A DNA stretch of 32,000 nt from Candidatus Acidulodesulfobacterium ferriphilum (GTDB lineage Bacteria > SZUA-79 > Acidulodesulfobacterales > Acidulodesulfobacteraceae). This document shows positions 3,831-25,007 of this stretch, in pieces. The position numbers and the translations under genes are program-made. The notes under the pieces were generated by a model, which was given only the letters and a program-made list of their open reading frames with translations, was not told the origin of the DNA and made no database searches. Within the stretch, counting starts at the first letter, position 1. Each line of letters begins with the position of its first letter. The stretch is taken from the NCBI GenBank assembly GCA_004195035.1, contig SGBD01000001.1, forward strand, positions 384,368 to 416,367, read 5' to 3'.

Positions 3831-6575
3831 CTAAATACCAGGAAAACTCTGACCCAGGCTAAACTGAATCCTCGTCGGATTATTCCCGTTTATCGGCGTT
3901 CCAAGTATTTTGCCATAAGTAATAGTTATGGGTCCAAACGGGGAATACCAGTTAAAACCGATTCCCGCCGCCTGAACGAGGTCCAATGGAAATACCGGTT
4001 CGCTCTGCCCCCATGCATTACCCGCATTCCACCATAAAAATCCATAAAAGCCCATCTTTTTAAGAATGGGTACTGAATATTTTGCCTGAACCGTAAACAT
4101 CTTTGTTCCGCCGATAAGCAAGCCGTTTTGCGAGGGACCGACGGAATCGTACATAAATCCTAAAAGCGGGTATGTATTCATTATACCGCCGACAAAAAAT
4201 CTCTGGTATATCGGCAATGCAACGGAAGACCTGGTTGAAGTTACATAACCTGCCTGCGCCCCCTGCATGAAAGATGTCCCCCACCATAACGGTATATAGT
4301 GGTTTGCCTGCGCTACAAATTTGATAAAATCGTCATTGCCGCCGATCGGGGGACCGGCAAAGCTGACCCTGAAACTGTCTAAATTGCCCGCGGTCGGAAC
4401 CATAGGATTATTTAATGTGTTATAAACGGTCGTTAAAGAAGCCTCGCTCGTTATCAATCTCCCCTGAGGCAAAATATTTAAAAGACCGGGAATTATAACC
4501 GATGTGTCTTCCTCTAAAAGGTACCTAAAATATTCCGTAAGCACATTTTTATAAAGCGGATAACCTAAAGTAATCGAACCGCCGACCGAACGATAGGCAA
4601 ATTCATAGTAAAGACCGTTAAAGGTGTCATATAAAGATAAATTAAACGATAAAGGTTTCGCAAAAATATAAGTAAGGTACGGCTGAAGAATATTAAAACT
4701 ATACGACTGATACGGCCCGCCAACCTGAGCATTTAAAGAGGCGGATATTCCCGTCCCAAATAAATTTGACTCGGAGATTGACGATATTGCCATAAAAGCC
4801 GTGGCAGAGCTATACCCGCCGCCAATCGTAAATTTACCCGTATTCTGTTCCTTAACATGCACTTTGACATCTAATATGCTTTCACCCGGAACCTTTTCGG
4901 TGGTGATGGCGACATGCTTAAAATACATCAAGTTTTTTAAATTTTGTCTCGATATTTTTATAAGCTTTGGGTTATATTCCTCGCCGGGGTAAAGAGCGAG
5001 CGCTCTAAGTATGACATAGCTGTAAGTAACATCATTTCCGGTTATCGTAATTTTGCCGAATTTTGCAATCTTACCCTTATGAACGATTAGTTTAATCAAA
5101 ACAGAATTTGTTTTTTGTCTGATTTTTATGGACGGCTCGACATTCGCAAAGGCATACCCTTTATTTGTGTAGAACTTGGTAATATTCAGTATCTCTTTTT
5201 CTATATATTGCCTGTTAAAAATATCCCCCACTTTTGTGATTATAAGTTTTTTAACGGAAATATATTCCCCCGAATCCTTTTTAACATTTTTTATTTCAAG
5301 GTCAACATTCGATATTCTATACTGCGGCCCTTGGACTATCTTTATGATAATTGTTACATACTTCTTATTTTTAGAGAAAATGAATACGGGTTTTCTGACC
5401 CTTACATTTATATAACCGTGATTATAGTAAAAACCTAATAATTTAATAATCTGGTTATTTAATTTTGCTTTCTTGAACTTTCCCGCACCCGTTATCCATG
5501 TCAGCAGATTAACCGTCTTTATGCCCATCACGGATTGAAGCTTTGCCGAAGGGAAAGAGCTGTTGCCTTCAAATTCAACTTTCTCAACCATTACGGGGGA
5601 ATTTTCGTTTATAAGAAAATGGATGCCGATATAATTGCCTTGAAAGGTTGTCTTTTTTACTTTTATCTTCGCATTATAATATCCCTCGGCCGAATATATA
5701 AATTTAAGAATTTTTAACGCCTTATCTAAGCCATAAGAGCTATAAGGCGAATTAACCTTCAGATTTATTACCTTCTTGATTTTCTTTACGCTTACGGAGG
5801 CGTTTCCCGAATATTTAATGTATTTAATGTACGGTCTTTCGGACACTATAAAAGTAACCGCCAGCCCTTCGGGTACGGCCCGGGCATTAACCATTATATT
5901 TTTAAAATACCCTGTTTTATAAAGGTCTTTAACGCTTTCGTTGATTTTTTTAATCGAATAATAACCCCCTTTTTTTATCTTAATCTTGCTTGCGATAAAT
6001 GAAGCGCCCGTCCTTATATTACCTTTTACCCTGATAGAATAAATCTTTTTTGAAACAGGCACATGCTTTTTGATTTTTTCCGCTTTTAAGCGGCTCAAAA
6101 TTAACGAGGACACCTTTTGGGATAAGGTATAAATGCTTTTTTCCAAAGACTTTTTACCGGCGCCCGAATATTTTACCGTTTTGGAGTTATAAATATCCGC
6201 GGCCTCTATCAGCATGGCATGAATTTCGTAATGAGATCCAAACCTTGCGATGCTGCCTGTTATAATATAATTTGAATGATATTTTATGCCAAGCCTTTTT
6301 ATTCCGGCAAGGTTCATCTTTGTATTAAAATTAAAATACGGCGGTTTTTTAAGGAGCGTGTATGCTAATACAAAGTATGGTTTTTTTGAATCCATATAGG
6401 TTTTAAAAACATCGGTAAACGATTTATCTATATTTTTTAATGCCGGAGTCCCCTTTTGATGGAAAAAACCGACAAACACATCCTTGTTGTTTAATAAGGC
6501 ATAAGCTTTTGTCGAATTTAAAAAAACAACAAAAGAAATGAAAAGTAAAAATAAAGACAATCTGAAAAATTTCAT
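3831..6575 (-). CDS. bamA: Outer membrane protein assembly factor BamA, with ~150-aa extra N-terminal domain
   Basis: 914-aa ORF with a signal peptide (..NSTKAYA), POTRA-like repeats starting near aa 178 (IYSIRVKGN...) and a C-terminal Omp85 barrel ending ...RIQFSLGQSFPGI. Confidence 0.9.
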   Translation of the reverse strand: MKFFRLSLFLLFISFVVFLNSTKAYALLNNKDVFVGFFHQKGTPALKNIDKSFTDVFKTYMDSKKPYFVLAYTLLKKPPYFNFNTKMNLAGIKRLGIKYHSNYIITGSIARFGSHYEIHAMLIEAADIYNSKTVKYSGAGKKSLEKSIYTLSQKVSSLILSRLKAEKIKKHVPVSKKIYSIRVKGNIRTGASFIASKIKIKKGGYYSIKKINESVKDLYKTGYFKNIMVNARAVPEGLAVTFIVSERPYIKYIKYSGNASVSVKKIKKVINLKVNSPYSSYGLDKALKILKFIYSAEGYYNAKIKVKKTTFQGNYIGIHFLINENSPVMVEKVEFEGNSSFPSAKLQSVMGIKTVNLLTWITGAGKFKKAKLNNQIIKLLGFYYNHGYINVRVRKPVFIFSKNKKYVTIIIKIVQGPQYRISNVDLEIKNVKKDSGEYISVKKLIITKVGDIFNRQYIEKEILNITKFYTNKGYAFANVEPSIKIRQKTNSVLIKLIVHKGKIAKFGKITITGNDVTYSYVILRALALYPGEEYNPKLIKISRQNLKNLMYFKHVAITTEKVPGESILDVKVHVKEQNTGKFTIGGGYSSATAFMAISSISESNLFGTGISASLNAQVGGPYQSYSFNILQPYLTYIFAKPLSFNLSLYDTFNGLYYEFAYRSVGGSITLGYPLYKNVLTEYFRYLLEEDTSVIIPGLLNILPQGRLITSEASLTTVYNTLNNPMVPTAGNLDSFRVSFAGPPIGGNDDFIKFVAQANHYIPLWWGTSFMQGAQAGYVTSTRSSVALPIYQRFFVGGIMNTYPLLGFMYDSVGPSQNGLLIGGTKMFTVQAKYSVPILKKMGFYGFLWWNAGNAWGQSEPVFPLDLVQAAGIGFNWYSPFGPITITYGKILGTPINGNNPTRIQFSLGQSFPGI

Positions 6576-17300: not shown

Positions 17301-18357
17301 AGGCTTTTATTATATTTTGAACAAGTTTATGCCTTAGCACATCAGTCCCGTTAAAATGTACTACTTCGATCCCTGAGGTATTGTTTAAAATCTTGCTTGC
17401 GGTTAAGAGACCTGATTCTTTATCTAAAGGAAGATCGGTTTGCGTTATATCGCCGTTTACGACAATTTTTGAACCTGAACCGATTCTTGTAAGCATCATC
17501 TTCATCTGTTCGTTTGTGGCATTTTGCGCTTCATCCAATATTATAAAAGAGTTATTGAGGGTTCTGCCCCTCATAAACGCGATCGGCGCAACCTCTATAA
17601 CATCCGTTTCGATAAGTTTCATTACTTTATCAAACTCGAGCATCTCGTATAGAGCGTCATATAAAGGTCTTAAGTAAGGATTGATTTTTTGTGAAATGTC
17701 TCCGGGTAAAAACCCCAATTTTTCACCGGCTTCTACGGCGGGGCGCGTTAATATTATTCTGTCAAACAGCTTTTTTTGAAATAACGACACTGCACAAGCC
17801 ATAGCAAGATAAGTTTTTCCAGTCCCTGCAGGCCCGACCCCGATAACTATATCGTTTTTATAAATGGCGTCCACATATTTTTTTTGATTTATCGTTCGGG
17901 GAGCTACAATCTTTTTTCTCGGGGTTATTAAGACGGAATTATAAAAATTGGCGCCGATATTTTGACCGGGGCTTTCAGTTTTCATCTTTGCCAGTCTTAT
18001 TAAATCGTTATCCGTAACAACTTTATTTGTTTTATATAAATCTATGAGGTCATATATAAATTCGCCGCAAATTCTCACATTTTCCTTACTGCCCTTAACC
18101 AACAAAACATTGCCCCTGACCGATATATCGACGGCAAATTCAGCCCCGATAATATCTAAGATATGCGAGGATGGGCTGGAAAACTTATTGAAAAGGTCAA
18201 TGTCTTCCAACTCGATCTTTTCAATACGGGCGGAAACATTTTCTTTCGGCTCGCACTCCTTTACCATAACCGCCTGCGCCGTTTTCCGCTCCGCAGCTGC
18301 TGCCTTCCGTATTTTATCGATGTTTCTCAAATTATGTTTTTGACGACCTCTCGGCAC
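17263..18357 (-). CDS. phoH: PhoH-like ATPase (YbeZ family)
   Basis: 364-aa ORF with Walker A GPAGTGKTYLA, Walker B ..FIILDEAQN.. and the GD.TQ.DLP motif. The annotated GTG start at 18357 has no SD, so the true start may be internal. Confidence 0.85.
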   Translation of the reverse strand: MPRGRQKHNLRNIDKIRKAAAAERKTAQAVMVKECEPKENVSARIEKIELEDIDLFNKFSSPSSHILDIIGAEFAVDISVRGNVLLVKGSKENVRICGEFIYDLIDLYKTNKVVTDNDLIRLAKMKTESPGQNIGANFYNSVLITPRKKIVAPRTINQKKYVDAIYKNDIVIGVGPAGTGKTYLAMACAVSLFQKKLFDRIILTRPAVEAGEKLGFLPGDISQKINPYLRPLYDALYEMLEFDKVMKLIETDVIEVAPIAFMRGRTLNNSFIILDEAQNATNEQMKMMLTRIGSGSKIVVNGDITQTDLPLDKESGLLTASKILNNTSGIEVVHFNGTDVLRHKLVQNIIKAYETNEISRISKK

Positions 18358-18370
18358 TTATAAATTTATA

Positions 18371-18399
18371 TTTATAGTTAATTATAACATTATAGTCAA
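18371..18399 (-). promoter_or_regulatory. Candidate sigma70-type promoter upstream of phoH
   Basis: The minus strand reads TTGACT (18399-18394), a 17-nt spacer, then TATAAA (18376-18371). A second TTGACT lies at 18407-18402. The AT-rich context makes chance matches likely. Confidence 0.3.
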
Positions 18400-18422
18400 A
18401 AAAGTCAAAATCGCAAGATTTA

Positions 18423-18444
18423 AAATATGGCGTCTGCCATATTT
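18423..18444 (-). terminator. Possible terminator hairpin downstream of the 347-aa island gene
   Basis: A 9-bp stem AAATATGGC/GCCATATTT with a 4-nt loop lies 12 nt after the stop at 18456. The T-tract is mostly inside the stem and weak beyond it. Confidence 0.3.
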
Positions 18445-18455
18445 AAGCCTGAAAT

Positions 18456-19499
18456 CTAATGCACTTCCAGAATATTTCCTTTGTATCCAAATTTTTCAAG
18501 CAGCATTCTACTATTGTTAATACAACCGGCGGTACTAAAATGCGTTTCAATAAATAATCCGTTAGATAATTTTTTTGGCGCTCTAAAATTATCCTTATAC
18601 CTATGTTTAGGTTCTGTATTAATCAGATTTCTTTTGCGGCCCGTTGGTATCGGACACTCCTTCCTAGTCAATTTACCTTTCTTAATAAGCCATTCCGCAG
18701 TATTAGTCAATATTTCCAGAGATTTTCTTACCTCAAAATAATTACCATTAATTTTAATGCTCTTTGGATTTATGTTTTCTTCAACCTGAGTATTGGTATG
18801 TTCTGGCTCAATTTCCTCGGCGGATAAAATTCCTTCTTTAATCCTCTCTCTTAAAAAATCTTCAATCATCATAGTTTCGAATTTAAAATCCGGATACCCT
18901 TCAATTATTATTTTACTAAAAACAGGGGTTAATCCTTTTATTATTTCTTCCGGTTCCTCAATCAACGATTTCCAGACCTCATCAAGTATCTTAAGTTTAT
19001 TTATAAGATTTTCGATATTTTCAATGCTCTCTTTGCTGATAGTATTTAGTTTTCTTATAACGGCAGTTAATCCATCGCTTTCCATATCCGTTTTCCATAC
19101 TATTCGCTCTGATACGGTTGTTCCTTCTTCAAATGATCTAAATAGTATCCAAATTACCCCGTTGGTTAAAACGCTATATTTCATCCCTTCAGAAAAACAG
19201 TATCTCGCTAATTGTTTTAGCGGTGATATATCAGATTTTTCTTCAATATCTGTAGATAAATTCTTGGCTTCAATAAAAATCACTTTTTTATCGTTTTTAA
19301 TAAGAACATAATCGGGTATGCCTTTGCCTTCATCAATTGAAATATTTGGTTGAACATCTTCGGGATTTTCAGTATCCCAACCTAAACTTCTTAAGAGCGG
19401 ATTTATTACTTGTTCTCTCACAGCCATTTCGTTTTGTTCATAAAGAGAACGGTGTTTCTTAATTTTTTCGAGTATATTTTCTACGGTTCCTTTAAGCAT
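18456..19499 (-). CDS. HsdR_N-type PD-(D/E)xK nuclease-domain protein with uncharacterised C-terminal half
   Basis: 347-aa ORF with a strong SD (AGGAGGTAAACTCA-ATG). The N-terminus reads ..VINPLLRSLGW...IPDYVL....VIFIEAKN...QLARY...VLTNGVIWILF, the pattern of the type I restriction R-subunit N-terminal nuclease fold. I cannot assign residues ~130-347. Confidence 0.6.
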   Translation of the reverse strand: MLKGTVENILEKIKKHRSLYEQNEMAVREQVINPLLRSLGWDTENPEDVQPNISIDEGKGIPDYVLIKNDKKVIFIEAKNLSTDIEEKSDISPLKQLARYCFSEGMKYSVLTNGVIWILFRSFEEGTTVSERIVWKTDMESDGLTAVIRKLNTISKESIENIENLINKLKILDEVWKSLIEEPEEIIKGLTPVFSKIIIEGYPDFKFETMMIEDFLRERIKEGILSAEEIEPEHTNTQVEENINPKSIKINGNYFEVRKSLEILTNTAEWLIKKGKLTRKECPIPTGRKRNLINTEPKHRYKDNFRAPKKLSNGLFIETHFSTAGCINNSRMLLEKFGYKGNILEVH

Positions 19500-19696
19500 T
19501 GAGTTTACCTCCTAATTATTTATTTTTACACAAAAAATTATGACAAGTTCTCATCTATCCGAGCATTTTTAATTTTATTAGACCTTGCCTACATCCAAGT
19601 GACGATCAGTATTTGAAGTAAAAGTTGGATAAAATTTCCCCGATATATTTAAATACAGACATTTTTATTTCCAAAGTTTTTTATAATTTAAACGCT

Positions 19697-20650
19697 TCAA
19701 AAAAGCAAATGTTCATCACAGTCTGAAGAATATGCACATAAATCGGATAGACACCATGGTTTTGTCATGTTTCTCCATAATTTTTTGCTATTATTAAAAA
19801 TCTTTAAGAGTGAGCCCTTTCCATTCCATTCTGAAAGGCTATATCTTGCAATATCGCAAGGGAACACTTCTTTATTGGGGGATAAAACTAACGTAGTGAA
19901 ACCGGCAAGGCAATCAATATGTGAATCTCTTGCTTGAAAATTTGTAATTGTTGGGTTTTTATCATTAAAATTTGAAACAGCTATAGATTTAGATATTGCA
20001 ATATCTTTTATTTGCGGAATGATTTCAGCGGAAAATATATCTCTTTCGATAGCACTCAGTTCTATTTCTGGATGACCCATAACATTCATTAAATGAAATC
20101 GGCTGGTAAATTTACTAAAAAAATCTATAGCCTCAGAAATGTCTAAAAAATTATATTTATTTATAACTATTCCTATAGAAGGGGATAATTCTTTATTGCC
20201 AGCTTCTTCAACTAAATTCATAAAACCTCTATAAGTTTCATTATATAATTGTCTGGTTTTATTATGGATATCCGGCGTATGACCGTCAAAACTGATTTGA
20301 ATAAAAGGTATTATTTCAAGTTCAAATAACGATTTTGCAATTTCTTTGCCGATAAATGTGCCATTTGAAACTATTGATATTCCAAGTTTAGCTGATTTGA
20401 TTATTTCAATAAATTTCAATATATCTTTATGAATAAACGGTTCTCCGCCGCTTAAATTTATATCAAATATTCCAATCTCGTTGGCTTCCTCGACAATTAA
20501 CGAGAAATCTTCAAGGCTAATATCGCAATTTTCTCTTTTATTATAGCCAAATCTATCATAACAGTACTTACAATTTAAATTGCACCTATCGGTTATTTCA
20601 ATAACCAAAAGCAACGGAGATCGCAAATCTAAATTATTTTGTTTGTTCAT
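19697..20650 (-). CDS. Radical SAM enzyme with Cys-rich SPASM/twitch-like C-terminus (predicted peptide/protein-modifying)
   Basis: It contains CNLNCKYCY (CxxxCxxC) 22 aa after Met39 of the tracked ORF, SGGEP (SAM-binding GGE motif), and a C-terminal C-x17-C ... C-x4-C-x5-C cluster. I prefer the ATG at 20650 over the ORF-track start at 20764, which has no SD and overlaps the upstream ORF by 131 nt. Confidence 0.8.
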   Translation of the reverse strand: MNKQNNLDLRSPLLLVIEITDRCNLNCKYCYDRFGYNKRENCDISLEDFSLIVEEANEIGIFDINLSGGEPFIHKDILKFIEIIKSAKLGISIVSNGTFIGKEIAKSLFELEIIPFIQISFDGHTPDIHNKTRQLYNETYRGFMNLVEEAGNKELSPSIGIVINKYNFLDISEAIDFFSKFTSRFHLMNVMGHPEIELSAIERDIFSAEIIPQIKDIAISKSIAVSNFNDKNPTITNFQARDSHIDCLAGFTTLVLSPNKEVFPCDIARYSLSEWNGKGSLLKIFNNSKKLWRNMTKPWCLSDLCAYSSDCDEHLLF

Positions 20651-20873
20651 GACTGATAAACTCGTTAAAAGCTTCTTCGTCCATTTTCCATATAATCCCT
20701 TCCTTATCCTGAACAGTATAATTATTTTCTCCCTCTTTTCTCCATCTATATTGACTTGAAACATAAGGGGATATTCTGCTGCCCCATTGATAATTCCAGT
20801 GCCCGCTCCATTTTTGTATTGAAGATTTTGGCTCCATGGTGTAAATGGAATCTAAAAAAACTTCTTTTTTCAT
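20634..20873 (-). CDS. Small Trp/Tyr-rich, Cys-free protein (79 aa); candidate radical-SAM substrate/precursor or partner
   Basis: An SD (GGGAGA) lies 6 nt before the ATG. An 80-codon open frame in very AT-rich DNA is unlikely by chance. Its stop overlaps the radical-SAM ATG by 17 nt. It has 5 Trp and 5 Tyr, including W22-x3-W26-x3-W30. Confidence 0.55.
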   Translation of the reverse strand: MKKEVFLDSIYTMEPKSSIQKWSGHWNYQWGSRISPYVSSQYRWRKEGENNYTVQDKEGIIWKMDEEAFNEFISHEQTK

Positions 20874-21072
20874 ATTGAATCTCCCATATTAAACTGAATT
20901 AAAATTTTACACAGCATAAAAAGCTCGCACCATCAAGGCTTTATATAATAATATATAATCTAATTATAAAATATTCAAGTTAAGTTAAATTTTATTTAAT
21001 TTGGCAATATATAAATTCATAATACTTGTGAGTTTAAATTTAATACGGTATATAAAAATTTAAATATATTGC

Positions 21073-23367
21073 TCAATATTTCTTTTCAAGGAGAGATGGT
21101 TCACCAAGAATTACCTTATTAACATTTTCCTCATTTGATTTAATTTCATATTTTGCAATTATAGCATCTATTATTAAACCCAATCCCAATCCTATAATTA
21201 TTCCAAAAAATGATTTAAATTCAGGGATTAAATTAAGCAAATCAATAAAAATACCAATTATCAAAAAAGCAATTCCAAGCAACATCATTAAAGATTCAAT
21301 AAAAGATATATTTGATATTATATTTTCTATAATTACATTTGAATATAAAATTGGATGACGAAGATTACACAAATGTGCGCGTATTATTTTACAATAGGAA
21401 AGATAATTATAAGCCTTAATTCTATAGTTAAAAGCCTCGGCTGTAATGTTTTTATCCATATTTTTTTTAGGTCTTGCATTTACAACTTTTGTGAAATCAT
21501 TGATAGACTCTTTATATAGCTCCAACTCATAATTTGCCAATCCCCTAAGCCTGTAAGCTTCAGTATTTTTATCATTTATTCTAATAGCTTCGGTAAAAAA
21601 ATTGATAGCTTCAGGGTAGCTTTCCAAATTAAGGTAGGCTCTCCCTTTGTCAATATAAATCTCGTCATAATAATCGTATTTTTGATAATCATCCTGATTT
21701 ATTTCTATTTTTATGGCTTCTTCCCAATCATTCTTAGCTTTTTGGATGTTATCGTAGTTAGCCAATGCTCTGTAATTATAGGCCTTTATAGATTTTGGAT
21801 CTATTTTAATTGTGTTTGTAAAATCTTCGATAGCCTCTTTGTATTTTCTTAAAAAAAGGTAAGATCTTCCTCTAAGGAAGTAAGCATTATCACATTCTTG
21901 AAATAATTTTATAGCTTTTGTGCAATCCTTAATGGTTGCACTATAATCATTTAAATTAAAATGATTTATTCCTCTGTCGGCATAAGCATAGCTTAATTCT
22001 TTTGCATCTTTTTCTTTTGTTATTACTATTTTGAGATCTTTAATAGCTTTTTGATATTTACCCATTCTAAAATAAACAGAGGCTCTAAATGAGTAAAACT
22101 CATTATTATTTGAATTTGTTTTTATTGCTTTTGTGTGGTCATGTACGGCTTTTCGATATTTGCGTAAATTATAATAGGTCGTTCCTCTATTTTTATAGTA
22201 CTCAGCATTCTTAGAATTAATTCTTATTGCTTCAGAAAAATCACTTATAGCCTCTTTGTTTTTTTCGCCTGAATCAAGATATGATAACCCCCTATTATTA
22301 AAGAATTCAGCATTTTTATTGTCTAGTTCTATAGCCTTTGTAAAATCGGAGATAGCCTTGTTATAATTGTCGGGATTATCGGGACCTAAAGAAGCAAAAG
22401 CTGCGCCACGATAATTATAAGCATCTGCAAACTCTTTTTTAATCTCTATAGCCTCTGTAAAATCGTCAATGGCTTTATTAATAATATTTCCATATTCTTC
22501 ATTATTTTTTAAATTGCGCAAATAAAAATAAGCTAATCCCCTGTTATTGTAAGCTTCTGCATTTTTGTCATCTAATTTTATAGCCTCTGTAAAATCGTCA
22601 ATAGCATTATTTATAGTATCTTCATATTTTCTATCATTACCTTTTTGTTGTTCGCTATAATCAAAATATGTTAGTCCCCTGTTATTGTAGGTTTTGGAAT
22701 TTCTATCATTTAATTTTATAGCTTCTGTGAAATCGTCGAAAGCCTTCTGAAATTTTTTTAAATCTCGAAAAGTTGAACCTCTATTATTATACGCATCAGT
22801 ATATTCTTTATTTATTTCTATGGCTTTTGTAAAGTCGTCAATGGCTTTATCATATTCTTTTAAAGAGCCATAGGACATTCCTCTAAAATTATAAACCTCT
22901 GCGTCATCATGTTTTGATTCTAAATCTAATTTTATAACTTCTGTGAAATCGCTAATGGCCTCCTCATATTTTTTTAGTTCGTAATAAATTCGTCCTCTTC
23001 GCATATAAGCACATCTTGGATAATTAGGAAACTCTCCTGTATTAGTCAATTTTAGTTCAATTATATAATCTTTAATGGTTTTAATATATTTTTCTTTTAA
23101 GAAAGGATAATAACGGCTTTTTATTTGAAAATTAATATTAATATAATCAGGGTTAAGTTCTGTAGCTTTTATGTAATCATTGATAGCTTTATGGTAATGC
23201 CCTAAAGCAGCAAAAGTCATACCTCTAAAATTGTATGCTTCCGCATTTTTATCGTTTATTCTTAAAACTTTCGAAAAACTTTCTTTAGCTTTTTTATAAA
23301 ATCTTAAATAAAAAAGAATAATGCCAATATAATAATTTGTTTTTATTATTAATTGCGATTTGTTCAT
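21073..23367 (-). CDS. Large TPR-repeat protein with two C-terminal transmembrane helices
   Basis: 764-aa ORF with more than 12 recognisable TPR units (recurrent A..D(F/Y)..AI...P/D.NAEAY.NRG). The C-terminus carries SLMMLLGIAFLIIGIFIDLL and FFGIIIGLGLGLIIDAIIA hydrophobic helices. Confidence 0.85.
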   Translation of the reverse strand: MNKSQLIIKTNYYIGIILFYLRFYKKAKESFSKVLRINDKNAEAYNFRGMTFAALGHYHKAINDYIKATELNPDYININFQIKSRYYPFLKEKYIKTIKDYIIELKLTNTGEFPNYPRCAYMRRGRIYYELKKYEEAISDFTEVIKLDLESKHDDAEVYNFRGMSYGSLKEYDKAIDDFTKAIEINKEYTDAYNNRGSTFRDLKKFQKAFDDFTEAIKLNDRNSKTYNNRGLTYFDYSEQQKGNDRKYEDTINNAIDDFTEAIKLDDKNAEAYNNRGLAYFYLRNLKNNEEYGNIINKAIDDFTEAIEIKKEFADAYNYRGAAFASLGPDNPDNYNKAISDFTKAIELDNKNAEFFNNRGLSYLDSGEKNKEAISDFSEAIRINSKNAEYYKNRGTTYYNLRKYRKAVHDHTKAIKTNSNNNEFYSFRASVYFRMGKYQKAIKDLKIVITKEKDAKELSYAYADRGINHFNLNDYSATIKDCTKAIKLFQECDNAYFLRGRSYLFLRKYKEAIEDFTNTIKIDPKSIKAYNYRALANYDNIQKAKNDWEEAIKIEINQDDYQKYDYYDEIYIDKGRAYLNLESYPEAINFFTEAIRINDKNTEAYRLRGLANYELELYKESINDFTKVVNARPKKNMDKNITAEAFNYRIKAYNYLSYCKIIRAHLCNLRHPILYSNVIIENIISNISFIESLMMLLGIAFLIIGIFIDLLNLIPEFKSFFGIIIGLGLGLIIDAIIAKYEIKSNEENVNKVILGEPSLLEKKY
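22447..22602. repeat. Intragenic direct repeat inside the TPR gene (24-bp exact copies 132 bp apart)
   Basis: TATAGCCTCTGTAAAATCGTCAAT occurs at 22447-22470 and 22579-22602, a 44-codon period that encodes AIDDFTEAI. Diverged copies occur near 22718 and 22822. Confidence 0.8.
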
Positions 23368-23439
23368 ATCCTAAAATCCAATAAATACATATTATTTAAA
23401 TTCCATACTGGCATATTTTTTGTTTTGTATAACAAAAAT

Positions 23440-24234
23440 CTATATAATCACGTTAGCTTTTCCATAAAGCAAAGGAAGCGCGTTCTGCCTCATCCTAAAT
23501 TTCGTTCCATGATTGTGTCCGGTGCGGGCATCGAAATCTACCAATATTTTTCCGTCTTCGATTGCTTTTAAAAAGCCCGCGAAATTAAACTTCTGCAACA
23601 TCATAACTTTTGAATATTTATAAAACTCTTTAGCTTTCTCCTTTTTAACTTCCGCCTGAACATAAAAACAATTTAAAAGTTTTGTTCCCGCTTTATGTTC
23701 TAAATCATCAAAACCCCAATATGGTTGCGGATCTAATTCCCCAAGCCCTATATTCTCCTTAACCGTCTTAAGCCAATCGGCATGCCTTATATCAACGGCT
23801 TTGGCATCGAAGGAAATTAAAACCTTTCTTTCCTTCCTGTCTATAACGACCATGAAGCCCCTATCGCTCCTTGATAATCCATGGATAGTCTGCCTGAAAC
23901 TCATTTCGTTTTCAGGATAATGTTTGCCTGCCTCTTTATGCGGCCAGCCGTATCTTTGCAAAAAGACTTGCGGTACGAAACGAATAGCTCTTGGGGAAGG
24001 CTCCGTATGGAATAAGGTGGTAAGAGACGTGGAGTTAATGCGTTGCGATTTAAGTTCCCACTCGGCTGCATTTGGAATCGGTAAATTATTCTCTTTAATA
24101 CCAAGCAAGTCTTCCAAGGTATTCCCGATTCCGCCGTGGTTTCCTTTGCGGGCGTTTGGAATCCAGCCTATTGCATAAATTTCTTTTAATTTATCTATTA
24201 AAGTTTGTTTTGTATATATTACAGGTTTTTTCAT
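23440..24234 (-). CDS. Type II restriction endonuclease, MvaI/BcnI (MutH-like) family
   Basis: 264-aa ORF whose ATG overlaps the methylase stop (ATGA). The layout ...GN.LE.LLG..ENN...P(N)AAEWELKS...LTTLFH... and C-terminal ..ILVDFDART..HNHGTKFR.. matches my recollection of BcnI/MvaI. The family assignment is from memory and not from a search. Confidence 0.6.
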   Translation of the reverse strand: MKKPVIYTKQTLIDKLKEIYAIGWIPNARKGNHGGIGNTLEDLLGIKENNLPIPNAAEWELKSQRINSTSLTTLFHTEPSPRAIRFVPQVFLQRYGWPHKEAGKHYPENEMSFRQTIHGLSRSDRGFMVVIDRKERKVLISFDAKAVDIRHADWLKTVKENIGLGELDPQPYWGFDDLEHKAGTKLLNCFYVQAEVKKEKAKEFYKYSKVMMLQKFNFAGFLKAIEDGKILVDFDARTGHNHGTKFRMRQNALPLLYGKANVII

Positions 24235-25007
24235 ACCATAGAAAAGAGCTTGCCTTGGGATAAATGTTTTTTAATCCGTTCTTCCGCCATGCCGCAATAT
24301 TCAGGGGATATTTCAATTCCTATATAATCCCTGTTAAAATTAATCGCTGAAATAGCGGTCGTTCCGGAACCCATAAACGGGTCTAAAACAATTTTGGCAT
24401 CGGTCGAGGATATAATCCTGTCAATAAGACTGATGGGAAATGCGGCGGGGTGGTCGTTTTTCATCTCTTGCGTAAATTCCCACACATCGCCGTATCTATT
24501 GGCTTTTTCTATAAGTTTGAATTTTGGTTTTGCAATAAGGTAGATAACTTCGTAGGTAGGTAAAAAATAGCCGGGGTTAAAATTCAGCCCCCCTTTTCTT
24601 TTCCATATAATAATTTGTCTTACGGGAAAACCCGAAACTATGTCCTGCCTATCCTGCAGGATTCCGGCTTGAACGCGCCATTTATGGTTGTAGAAAATAG
24701 CCCCCGAATCTGGAATTATCCTGAACATTTCTTTAAGGCAATCCCTTTGCCATTTTACATATTTATCATGAGGCATACAATCATTGTGGTGGGAATAGCC
24801 TTTCTGAAGGGCGGCATTTGCCCATTTCCCGCCGCGGCCGTCTTTCATGCCGTTTCCGGTAGAATTTTTTAAATTATACGGCGGCGAGGTAATAACTAAA
24901 TCAACGGAACCGCCGGGGATTTGCTTCATAATATTTACGGCATCTCCGCAAACTATTTGATTTGTAAAGTCTTCAGGAAAACGAAGTTCAGCAGAACTTA
25001 ATTTCAT
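24231..25007 (-). CDS. DNA methyltransferase, N4-cytosine/N6-adenine family (beta-class; SPPY motif suggests m4C)
   Basis: 258-aa ORF with motif IV VITSPPYN near the N-terminus and motif I VLDPFMGSGTT near the C-terminus (PF01555-like order). Confidence 0.85.
   Translation of the reverse strand: MKLSSAELRFPEDFTNQIVCGDAVNIMKQIPGGSVDLVITSPPYNLKNSTGNGMKDGRGGKWANAALQKGYSHHNDCMPHDKYVKWQRDCLKEMFRIIPDSGAIFYNHKWRVQAGILQDRQDIVSGFPVRQIIIWKRKGGLNFNPGYFLPTYEVIYLIAKPKFKLIEKANRYGDVWEFTQEMKNDHPAAFPISLIDRIISSTDAKIVLDPFMGSGTTAISAINFNRDYIGIEISPEYCGMAEERIKKHLSQGKLFSMV

Follow-up and report, generated by a model that had tools for sequence, protein, structure and literature searches.

A small gene and a radical-SAM gene inherited together

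We analysed a 32,000-nucleotide (nt) stretch of DNA, hereafter the window, from the metagenome-assembled genome (MAG) of Candidatus Acidulodesulfobacterium ferriphilum (contig SGBD01000001.1, positions 384,368 to 416,367), and found in it two overlapping genes on the minus strand. One is an open reading frame (ORF) whose translation gives a 79-amino-acid (aa) protein (20634..20873, minus strand), and the other encodes a 317-aa radical S-adenosylmethionine (radical-SAM) enzyme (19697..20650, minus strand). This gene pair recurred in more than 15 unrelated genomic contexts. On balance we consider it probable that the small protein is a self-docking substrate of the adjoining enzyme and is cross-linked within an aromatic motif. 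The pair appears to represent an uncharacterised radical-SAM/peptide family whose substrate seemingly carries a recognition element, and no named family fits it.

Direct reading of the sequence showed that the TAA of the small ORF lies at 20636-20634 and the ATG of the radical-SAM gene at 20650, giving a 17-nt overlap between the end of one gene and the start of the other (20634..20650, minus strand), as in translational coupling. A Shine-Dalgarno-like GGGAGA (20880..20885, minus strand) stands 6 nt before the small-gene ATG. The layout of ORF and enzyme, the GGGAGA-N6-ATG and the overlap had all been described in the initial annotation, and all are present on the minus strand. At the other same-strand loci the two genes also overlapped, or were separated by a gap of at most about 115 nt. 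The GenBank entry for the enzyme (RZD15077.1) is 355 aa long (19697-20764, minus strand); judging from the alignment of homologues, its start is placed 38 codons too early, in a frame overlapping the small gene. We set the start of the 317-aa enzyme at MNKQNN... because all homologues begin at the equivalent position. In one Aeromonas veronii assembly (GCA_052772305.1) the small ORF was present, yet no gene had been called there. The intergenic DNA flanking the pair in the window contained no plausible alternative ORF, and positions 18000-24500 gave no Rfam match, which ruled out a hidden alternative precursor or RNA element. No terminator-like sites were found at the locus, and promoter-like sites were not enriched.

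Comparison of the three closest loci gave a ratio of nonsynonymous to synonymous substitution rates (dN/dS) of 0.06-0.19 for the small ORF, with synonymous sites near saturation. By this measure the 79-aa ORF is a genuine gene under strong purifying selection. A first search returned only five close relatives of the small protein, and with a profile the number rose to 55 clusters (90% identity). When 1.84 billion representative proteins were scanned exhaustively with HMMER, 33 matches were obtained, of which about 27 were genuine (clusters at 50% identity), and a metagenome scan added 10 further loci, mostly short. The small-protein family is rare. The small protein of the window matched no family in Pfam, NCBIfam or PADLOC; a match to DUF7369 (E=0.045) was taken as chance.

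The contexts of ten members of the enzyme clade were inspected, and each time an ORF of 71-109 aa was found immediately upstream on the same strand. These ORFs carried the same motif and often overlapped the enzyme start, and a motif scan of all fetched loci agreed. Homologues of the enzyme at 33-82% identity adjoined the small gene in all distinct contexts checked, and starting instead from three small proteins encoded on long contigs led each time to the enzyme, located directly downstream. The pairing of small ORF and enzyme is far beyond chance. The initial annotation had made its proposal depend on homologues of the enzyme neighbouring a homologous small ORF and on protein-level conservation of the 79-aa frame; the former was seen always in the intact loci examined, and the dN/dS values speak for the latter. 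Two loci were exceptional. In a Desulfofervidaceae MAG (L025, 983-2833) a gene for a 417-aa transposase interrupts the radical-SAM gene at about residue 150, which leaves a decayed copy of the module. In a Coleofasciculus MAG (L022) the upstream ORF has the conserved flanks but a different core.

On ColRNAI plasmids of Klebsiella (five identical, 4,773 base pairs (bp)) the two genes were adjacent and divergently transcribed, as they were on a 7,680-bp plasmid of Escherichia marmotae. Such head-to-head pairs on ColE1-type plasmids were located at 2187-3438 in L118 (NZ_CP067050.1), at 2452-3700 in L119 (NZ_CP099348.1) and in L120. The pairing thus survives rearrangement, since the genes on these enterobacterial plasmids are divergent yet adjacent. 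Over 14 loci, the pairwise identities of the small protein correlated with those of the enzyme (r=0.88), and on this sequence comparison the two proteins co-diverge.

The enzyme and its auxiliary-cluster region

The enzyme scored 73.3 bits against PF04055 (cut-off 29.5) and 36.9 bits against Fer4_12 (cut-off 22), the sole Pfam families matched. The cluster motif C23-x3-C27-x2-C30, which supplies the radical-SAM [4Fe-4S] ligands (20561..20584, minus strand), and the segment SGGEPF (residues 67-72, with G68, G69, E70 and P71) were invariant in 24 homologues; the CxxxCxxC and GGE motifs pointed out in the initial annotation are therefore family features. By cluster motif, GGE and Pfam score, the enzyme is a member of the radical SAM superfamily. 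Its clade (P0006-P0033, 33-100% identity) was separated from generic SPASM proteins by a large score gap. The best NCBIfam scores were those of WgkB (92.5 bits against a cut-off of 650, confined to the N-terminal radical-SAM half of the enzyme), tungsten cofactor maturase (89.2 against 380) and ScmE (88.6 against 400), and those of PqqE (72.9 against 381) and MftC (72.7 against 265) were lower still. All 25 NCBIfam families listed were far below cut-off, and none conferred membership in a named peptide-maturase family. The earlier suggestion that the enzyme falls outside the known families agrees with these scores, WgkB included.

We then considered the C-terminal cysteines. Only C247, C265 and C300 were invariant in the family; C305 and C311 were confined to the nearest relatives and lie in a tail with a predicted local distance difference test (pLDDT) score below 50, in an AlphaFold2 model whose mean pLDDT was 82.6. 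The auxiliary-cluster region reads C247-(L)AG...x17...P-C265-D, then W-C300 (19751..19912, minus strand; codons checked). In the model, C247 and C265 belong to a predicted hairpin (strands 253-256 and 261-263), followed by a helix (280-293) and then C300, as in a twitch domain. The window enzyme had no match to the SPASM family PF13186, and the seven-Cys motif was not conserved; PF13186 was scored by some distant members of the clade that are paired with long forms of the small protein (P0011, P0030-33, L125, L128). The initial annotation had read the C-terminal cysteines as an abbreviated SPASM/twitch domain. Its C-x17-C pair is conserved together with C300, its C-x4-C-x5-C part does not extend beyond the nearest relatives, and the 'abbreviated SPASM' label was not upheld for a family with a three-Cys site. 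From sequence and model, the enzyme is best described as twitch-like, not SPASM, with a single putative auxiliary cluster.

A profile of the clade was compared with the PDB. SuiB (5v1q) was the best match (E 5.7e-19, query 5-261, from chain residue 122), followed by SkfB (6efn, E 2.5e-18, from chain residue 108), CteB (E 5.5e-17, from chain residue 99), BlsE (E ~1e-16), viperins (E ~1e-14 to 1e-16), MoaA (E ~1e-15) and anSME (E ~3e-13, query 9-285). Foldseek gave the order BlsE (7vob, E 4.6e-13), SuiB, CteB, anSME and SkfB, with viperin and MoaA close behind. The identity of SuiB to the window enzyme was 17-19%. By profile the closest solved structures are SPASM/twitch enzymes that modify peptides, and by fold these come after BlsE, which is a nucleoside-sugar decarboxylase. 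The starts of the SuiB, SkfB and CteB matches lie past what we take, from the published structures, to be their N-terminal recognition domains, known as RREs after the recognition element of peptides that are synthesized ribosomally and modified post-translationally (RiPPs). Because these matches begin only after those domains, the enzyme itself has no N-terminal recognition domain.

The presence of viperins among the Foldseek matches, together with the defence-island setting described below, brings up the idea that the enzyme is a viperin-like nucleotide-modifying antiviral protein and the small ORF incidental. Scores of 83.6 and 73.4 bits against the PADLOC pVip models and of 67.5 bits against the NCBIfam model viperin_w_prok would fit it. 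However, the PADLOC matches span only the generic core (residues 17-192), and the 67.5 bits against the NCBIfam model (NF038283) come from residues 19-168 and compare with a cut-off of 180 bits, which leaves the enzyme outside that family. The enzyme family also has an invariant three-Cys C-terminal site, and viperins are not known to have an auxiliary cluster. In addition, enzyme and small ORF are strictly inherited together, and the ORF is under purifying selection. We regard this explanation as highly improbable.

A putative substrate and its proposed docking domain

The small protein in the window contains 5 Trp, 5 Tyr and no Cys, with W22, W26 and W30 at i, i+4 and i+8 and eight of the aromatic residues within 22-52, exactly as first noted. 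Across an alignment of 56 sequences, H25, W26, W30, R45 and G59 were invariant, S9, E14, N27, Y28, R33 and E47 were at least 90% conserved, and Y11 and P15 were invariant or nearly so. The family layout begins with an N-terminal (L)DSVYTxEP, followed by the core W/C-x3-H-W-N-Y-x-W-x-x-R, a variable linker and finally R-x-R-x-E...G...(I/V)W. In the window, the N-terminal segment is FLDSIYTMEP (residues 6-15; 20829..20858, minus strand), a possible leader-like strand. The aromatic core is W22-x3-H25-W26-N27-Y28-Q29-W30-x2-R33 (20775..20810, minus strand), the proposed site of modification. The rest of the protein (residues 43-79; 20637..20747, minus strand) is modelled as a beta-beta-beta-alpha unit and may be a truncated PqqD/RRE-like docking domain.

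AlphaFold2, run with the family alignment, gave the small protein a mean pLDDT of 61.6 and placed strands at 4-7, 43-48, 51-55 and 61-65 and a helix at 66-78. Residues 43-78 reached a pLDDT of 70-82. Most of the core falls within two stretches that stayed under 50 (residues 12-27 and 31-38), and the core is predicted to be disordered. The initial annotation had preferred a small folded protein to a classic leader-core peptide, and the modelled unit, homologous to a fuller domain in the long forms, supports a partly folded one; the 'acidic helical tail' that it described is modelled as a helix, and this helix is the end of the beta-beta-beta-alpha unit.

The long forms (106-114 aa) have a C-terminus extended by two helical segments, with sequence room for three helices. 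The window protein aligned to their beta-sheet part, with R45, E47 and G59 conserved. In NCBIfam, 13 of 16 long forms matched MftB (best E 0.0034) and 9 of 16 the lasso-peptide PqqD chaperone (best E 2.1e-4); in Pfam, 2 of 16 matched PqqD (PF05402, E 0.05) and 5 of 16 a winged-helix family, all below the curated cut-offs. A PDB profile search with the long forms gave only spurious matches such as myosin light chain, and comparing their profile by hhalign with two individual proteins that contain PqqD yielded no information. The window protein matched neither PF05402 nor an NCBIfam PqqD family. In its beta-beta-beta-alpha model, helices 2 and 3 of the full RRE fold are missing, as they are in most family members, and the Aeromonas-type small proteins (71 aa) end after the third strand; the aromatic motif was always kept. 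These alignments suggest that the C-terminal half of the window protein is a shortened homologue of a PqqD/RRE-like domain, which appears complete in the 109-aa relatives; this is a matter of resemblance and not of membership.

The core was near-invariant in most members, and RiPP-style variation was limited to three proteins with variant cores and one with a tandem core, all with conserved flanks. P0186 has two tandem HW(N/M)(F/Y)QW cores. In L022 (4574-4873) and P0201 both flanks are kept around a cyanobacterial-type core, WSKWxGKW, and in P0207 the core is AWPFKWHGR. A conserved strand of the enzyme, RFHLMNVM, was altered to R(F/L)NLMAVQ only in the Coleofasciculus-type enzymes (P0024, L022), and that of L022 was seen beside the WSKW-type core. 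This apparent covariation of enzyme and core favours substrate status of the small protein. Close homologues had Cys in the linker, and a long-form (109-aa) subfamily had an invariant Cys at the W22 position. The earlier exclusion of thioethers on the ground of missing Cys holds for the window protein and cannot be carried over to the family, given these long forms. One protein (P0200, 422 aa) corresponds over its first 40 residues to an Aeromonas-type small protein up to the core, with an unrelated remainder; it could be a true fusion, or else an artefact of assembly or of a frameshift.

Since the enzyme lacks a recognition domain and its partner carries one beside a disordered, invariant aromatic loop, the small protein may be viewed as a self-docking substrate, like a fusion of PqqA and PqqD. 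That the enzyme acts on the small protein, and that the C-terminal part serves for docking, is what we infer; the pair itself, its conservation and co-divergence, its layout, the cysteine set and the genomic settings were observed. In the mechanism that we propose, the PqqD/RRE-like domain of the small protein would place the substrate on the enzyme. The enzyme would reductively cleave SAM and then abstract a hydrogen atom in the core, and the three-Cys twitch-like auxiliary cluster would complete an oxidative side-chain cross-link among His, Trp and Tyr. One or more cross-links are expected by analogy to streptide, darobactin/dynobactin, triceptides and WprB. The candidates would be H25, W26, Y28, W30 and possibly R33, with a loss of 2 Da per link. 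As neither a protease nor an exporter is conserved in the vicinity, the modified small protein probably acts intact inside the cell. Both the bond type and the function of the product are speculative.

Several observations weigh against this proposal. The RRE assignment is weak, given that all long-form matches are below cut-off and the window protein has none. Foldseek with the low-confidence small-protein model returned nothing. Among RiPPs a near-invariant core is unusual, and it would fit a catalytic or binding role of the motif as well. The fold search cannot separate peptide-modifying from small-molecule twitch enzymes, and BlsE stands at its top. Finally, no protease, exporter or immunity gene was conserved across the contexts examined, unlike in typical RiPP clusters.

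Some of these points would suit another role for the small protein, that of a PqqD-like accessory subunit or regulator whose HWNYxW loop sits in the active site while the enzyme acts on a different substrate, be it an unlinked peptide, a nucleotide or another metabolite. The long forms resemble discrete chaperones (MftB, lasso PqqD), the near invariance of the core recalls functional sites more than RiPP cores, and BlsE, the top fold neighbour, is a twitch enzyme acting on a nucleoside sugar. However, conservation in the small protein is highest in the N-terminal motif and not in the chaperone-like domain, most members lack helices 2 and 3 that a working RRE needs, and the motif is predicted to be disordered. 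The duplicated core (P0186) and the variant cores with conserved flanks look substrate-like, and no other conserved small ORF accompanies the pair, whose contexts differ completely. We favour a substrate over an accessory subunit because the recognition-like domain is dispensable while the motif is kept, tandem and variant cores occur, and an enzyme strand is altered; the accessory role seems unlikely to us.

If the small protein is a substrate, it could also belong to a conventional secreted RiPP, a bacteriocin or signal, with the core excised and exported by unlinked housekeeping proteases and transporters. The enzyme class includes the maturases of streptide, sactipeptides and Skf, the cores vary and are duplicated among relatives, and the plasmid site recalls colicin and microcin plasmids. 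Against this, no peptidase, ABC/MFS exporter or immunity gene was conserved in the contexts examined, the core is internal, between two conserved regions, and the alignment showed no evident double-glycine or other cleavage motif. Such a fate for the product is, in our estimate, quite unlikely. The initial annotation had called the pair a RiPP-like cassette. A small precursor-like gene is indeed conserved beside a modifying enzyme, and the usual leader peptidase and exporter were not conserved near the pair in any context examined.

Relation to known systems

Among known systems, the PqqA/PqqD/PqqE and MftA/MftB/MftC sets are similar to the pair in combining a small ribosomal peptide and a PqqD-type recognition/chaperone domain with a radical-SAM enzyme from the SPASM/twitch class, and their products stay inside the cell and are not exported antibiotics. 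MftB and lasso PqqD were also the only recurrent family matches of the long forms, and PqqE and MftC were among the matches of the enzyme. Unlike the pyrroloquinoline quinone (PQQ) and mycofactocin systems, the pair described here has peptide and PqqD-like domain in one polypeptide, with the core N-terminal to a domain that is mostly truncated to beta-beta-beta-alpha. It has three auxiliary Cys instead of the full SPASM set, and it lacks equivalents of the tailoring genes PqqB/C/F or MftD/E/F. The streptide systems (StrA/StrB and SuiA/SuiB, both with a Lys-Trp cross-link) are related through SuiB, the best PDB profile match and second by fold, which reportedly cross-links a Trp through a C-C bond in a peptide lacking Cys. 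They differ in the N-terminal RRE of SuiB and in its full SPASM domain, which carries two auxiliary clusters. The precursor is short, of the leader-core type with the core at the C-terminus, and an exporter/protease gene accompanies it.

The darobactin/dynobactin, triceptide and WprB/WgkB group provided the top NCBIfam match (WgkB). Radical-SAM enzymes of this group cross-link Trp, Tyr or His side chains in short motifs (W-N-W-S-K, aromatic-x-x), and the H-W-N-Y-x-W-x-x-R core presumably offers several i/i+2 pairs for such chemistry. Unlike in that group, the core here is internal and not C-terminal, and there is no dar-type transporter. SkfB and BlsE resemble the enzyme in size and in the single auxiliary-cluster domain that follows the radical-SAM barrel. 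The reaction of SkfB, however, yields a Cys-to-Met thioether and SkfB carries an N-terminal RRE, BlsE is a nucleoside-sugar decarboxylase, and neither has such a partner protein. In borosins, a ribosomal substrate is reported to be covalently fused to a domain that secures its own modification (PMC8429565). There the core is fused to the catalytic methyltransferase, whereas the small protein described here joins it to a putative recognition domain and leaves the catalyst separate. In the open-access papers and bioRxiv preprints searched, we found no description of the motif, of a precursor-RRE fusion or of a radical-SAM defence pair.

If the proposal is correct, the pair would add to the radical-SAM/peptide families one not yet described, whose target, His-Trp-Asn-Tyr-x-Trp, is invariant, and new cross-link chemistry would be likely. 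Recognition elements normally belong to the enzyme or form a separate chaperone; one carried on the substrate, which can be trimmed to a bare beta-sheet, would be an unusual design and would bear on the evolution of RRE-dependent recognition. Genome mining that looks for enzyme-borne or separate RREs and short C-terminal cores would miss such systems. The core variants (L022, P0201, P0207, P0186) could serve as ready-made specificity probes, and the natural two-gene version on enterobacterial ColE1-type plasmids makes the system directly testable.

Genomic settings and neighbouring genes

The pair was found in Acidulodesulfobacterium, Lentisphaeria/Victivallales, a cyanobacterium, Aeromonas, Desulfofervidaceae and enterobacterial plasmids, and its settings include restriction/defence islands and integrase elements. 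This fits a self-contained, horizontally mobile two-gene module. Searches of IMG/VR returned distant radical-SAM relatives at best (no more than 39% identity over ~95 aa) and the GenBank phage collection gave no match, which ruled out a phage origin of the pair. The pair was not matched in complete E. coli genomes. Restriction/defence islands, integrase elements, 4.8-kb plasmids of clinical Klebsiella and the lack of an exporter point away from a classical secreted antibiotic.

In the window, the guanine-cytosine (GC) content is 27-30% over about 19000-23500 and 35-42% in the flanks (PhoH, 7TM-HD, MurJ, Asd), consistent with a horizontally acquired island. The island is bounded by PhoH/7TM-HD and MurJ/Asd and holds an HSDR_N protein and an MvaI/BcnI restriction-modification pair. 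The latter is a type II system (23440-25007, minus strand) in which the gene for a 264-aa MvaI/BcnI endonuclease (PF15515, 233 bits) overlaps that for a 258-aa N4/N6 DNA methylase; its GC content is about 40%, above that of the adjacent island. The HSDR_N-like protein (347 aa; 18456-19499, minus strand) had weak matches to type IIG restriction enzymes. It stands alone, with no helicase or methylase partner nearby, and may be an orphan nuclease or defence gene.

Such surroundings raise the possibility that the pair is an anti-phage defence or a plasmid- or island-addiction module, in which the modified small protein would act inside the cell as a sensor, effector or toxin-antidote; this role is compatible with the enzyme-substrate mechanism. 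The low-GC island lies beside the restriction-modification pair and the HSDR_N protein, and defence-type neighbours were seen elsewhere: N6/N4 methylase and ResIII (a type-III-like methylase and helicase) in L115, an AriA-like ATPase in L012 and L032, a SIR2-like protein in L128, a reverse transcriptase in L010 and one further context, WYL and kinase proteins in L019, and PIN/HTH modules beside the pair in L034 and L022. The pair is also the main cargo of the 4,773-bp ColRNAI plasmids found in Klebsiella, and it has no conserved exporter or protease beside it. On the other side, this is guilt by association, and small plasmids and islands carry bacteriocin genes too. In PADLOC-DB 2.0 the small protein had no match and the sole match of the enzyme was to the generic radical-SAM core of the pVip models, which does not assign the pair to a system. 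Moreover, in Aeromonas veronii the pair occupies a stable site between the formate-dehydrogenase operon and fdhD, and in L008 its neighbours are metabolic genes. We consider a role in defence or addiction possible and somewhat doubtful.

A more specific and less likely version would make the pair a minimal mobile immune or addiction module, in which a cross-linked aromatic loop on a cut-down RRE forms an intact intracellular agent that possibly feeds differing neighbour effectors. Candidate effectors would possibly be the TPR protein in the window, and elsewhere a 180-194-aa protein together with the AriA-like ATPase or the SIR2-like protein. If this were true, RiPP-type chemistry and a substrate-borne recognition domain would enter prokaryotic defence.

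The TPR gene (21073..23367, minus strand) encodes a 764-aa protein with TPR family matches. A hydrophobic C-terminal stretch, seen by eye in the sequence and the alignments, is a probable membrane segment. Orthologues with 43-45% identity, including the C-terminal hydrophobic region, were found directly upstream in L017/L018 and L115-L117 (L017 6020-7648; L115 5053-6588). The restriction systems around the TPR-bearing loci differ, and the TPR gene is absent from other lineages, suggesting that the protein is probably a lineage-specific third component.

In L012, L032 and L125 a conserved 180-194-aa protein, 35-50% identical between loci, was encoded directly upstream of the pair. These long-form multi-gene loci lie at 3634-5611 in L012, 4980-6925 in L032 and 434-1015 in L125. 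In L012 and L032 the gene order was an AAA_15/DUF3696 ATPase (NsnB/PDC-M55A/HEC-03B/AriA-like, 196 bits), the 180-194-aa protein and then the pair, and the four genes may form a unit. The 180-194-aa protein, with an hh-D-T-N N-terminus, found no support in Pfam, PADLOC or the PDB profile search; its assignment as a PIN nuclease was rejected, since only the hhDTN-like N-terminus speaks for it. In L128 (6732-9267) the place of the 180-194-aa protein is taken by a 415-aa SIR2_2-like protein, encoded 22 nt upstream of the small gene, a pattern that resembles effector swapping in defence systems.

Some further genes and repeats were observed near the pair. Metallo-beta-lactamase-fold proteins (Apyc1-like or beta-CASP) were encoded 1-3 genes away in three loci unrelated to one another, L005 (3840-4736), L032 (8437-9357) and L014 (3887-5644). 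The 4.8-kb Klebsiella plasmid also carried genes for an HTH_17 protein and for a 115-aa protein with a weak MGMT-like DNA-binding match. In L118, five near-identical 48-nt repeats at 3973-4276 (DDRLRTLATFDGKTLK x5) contained ORFs on both strands, and they are probably plasmid repeats such as iterons and not a gene.

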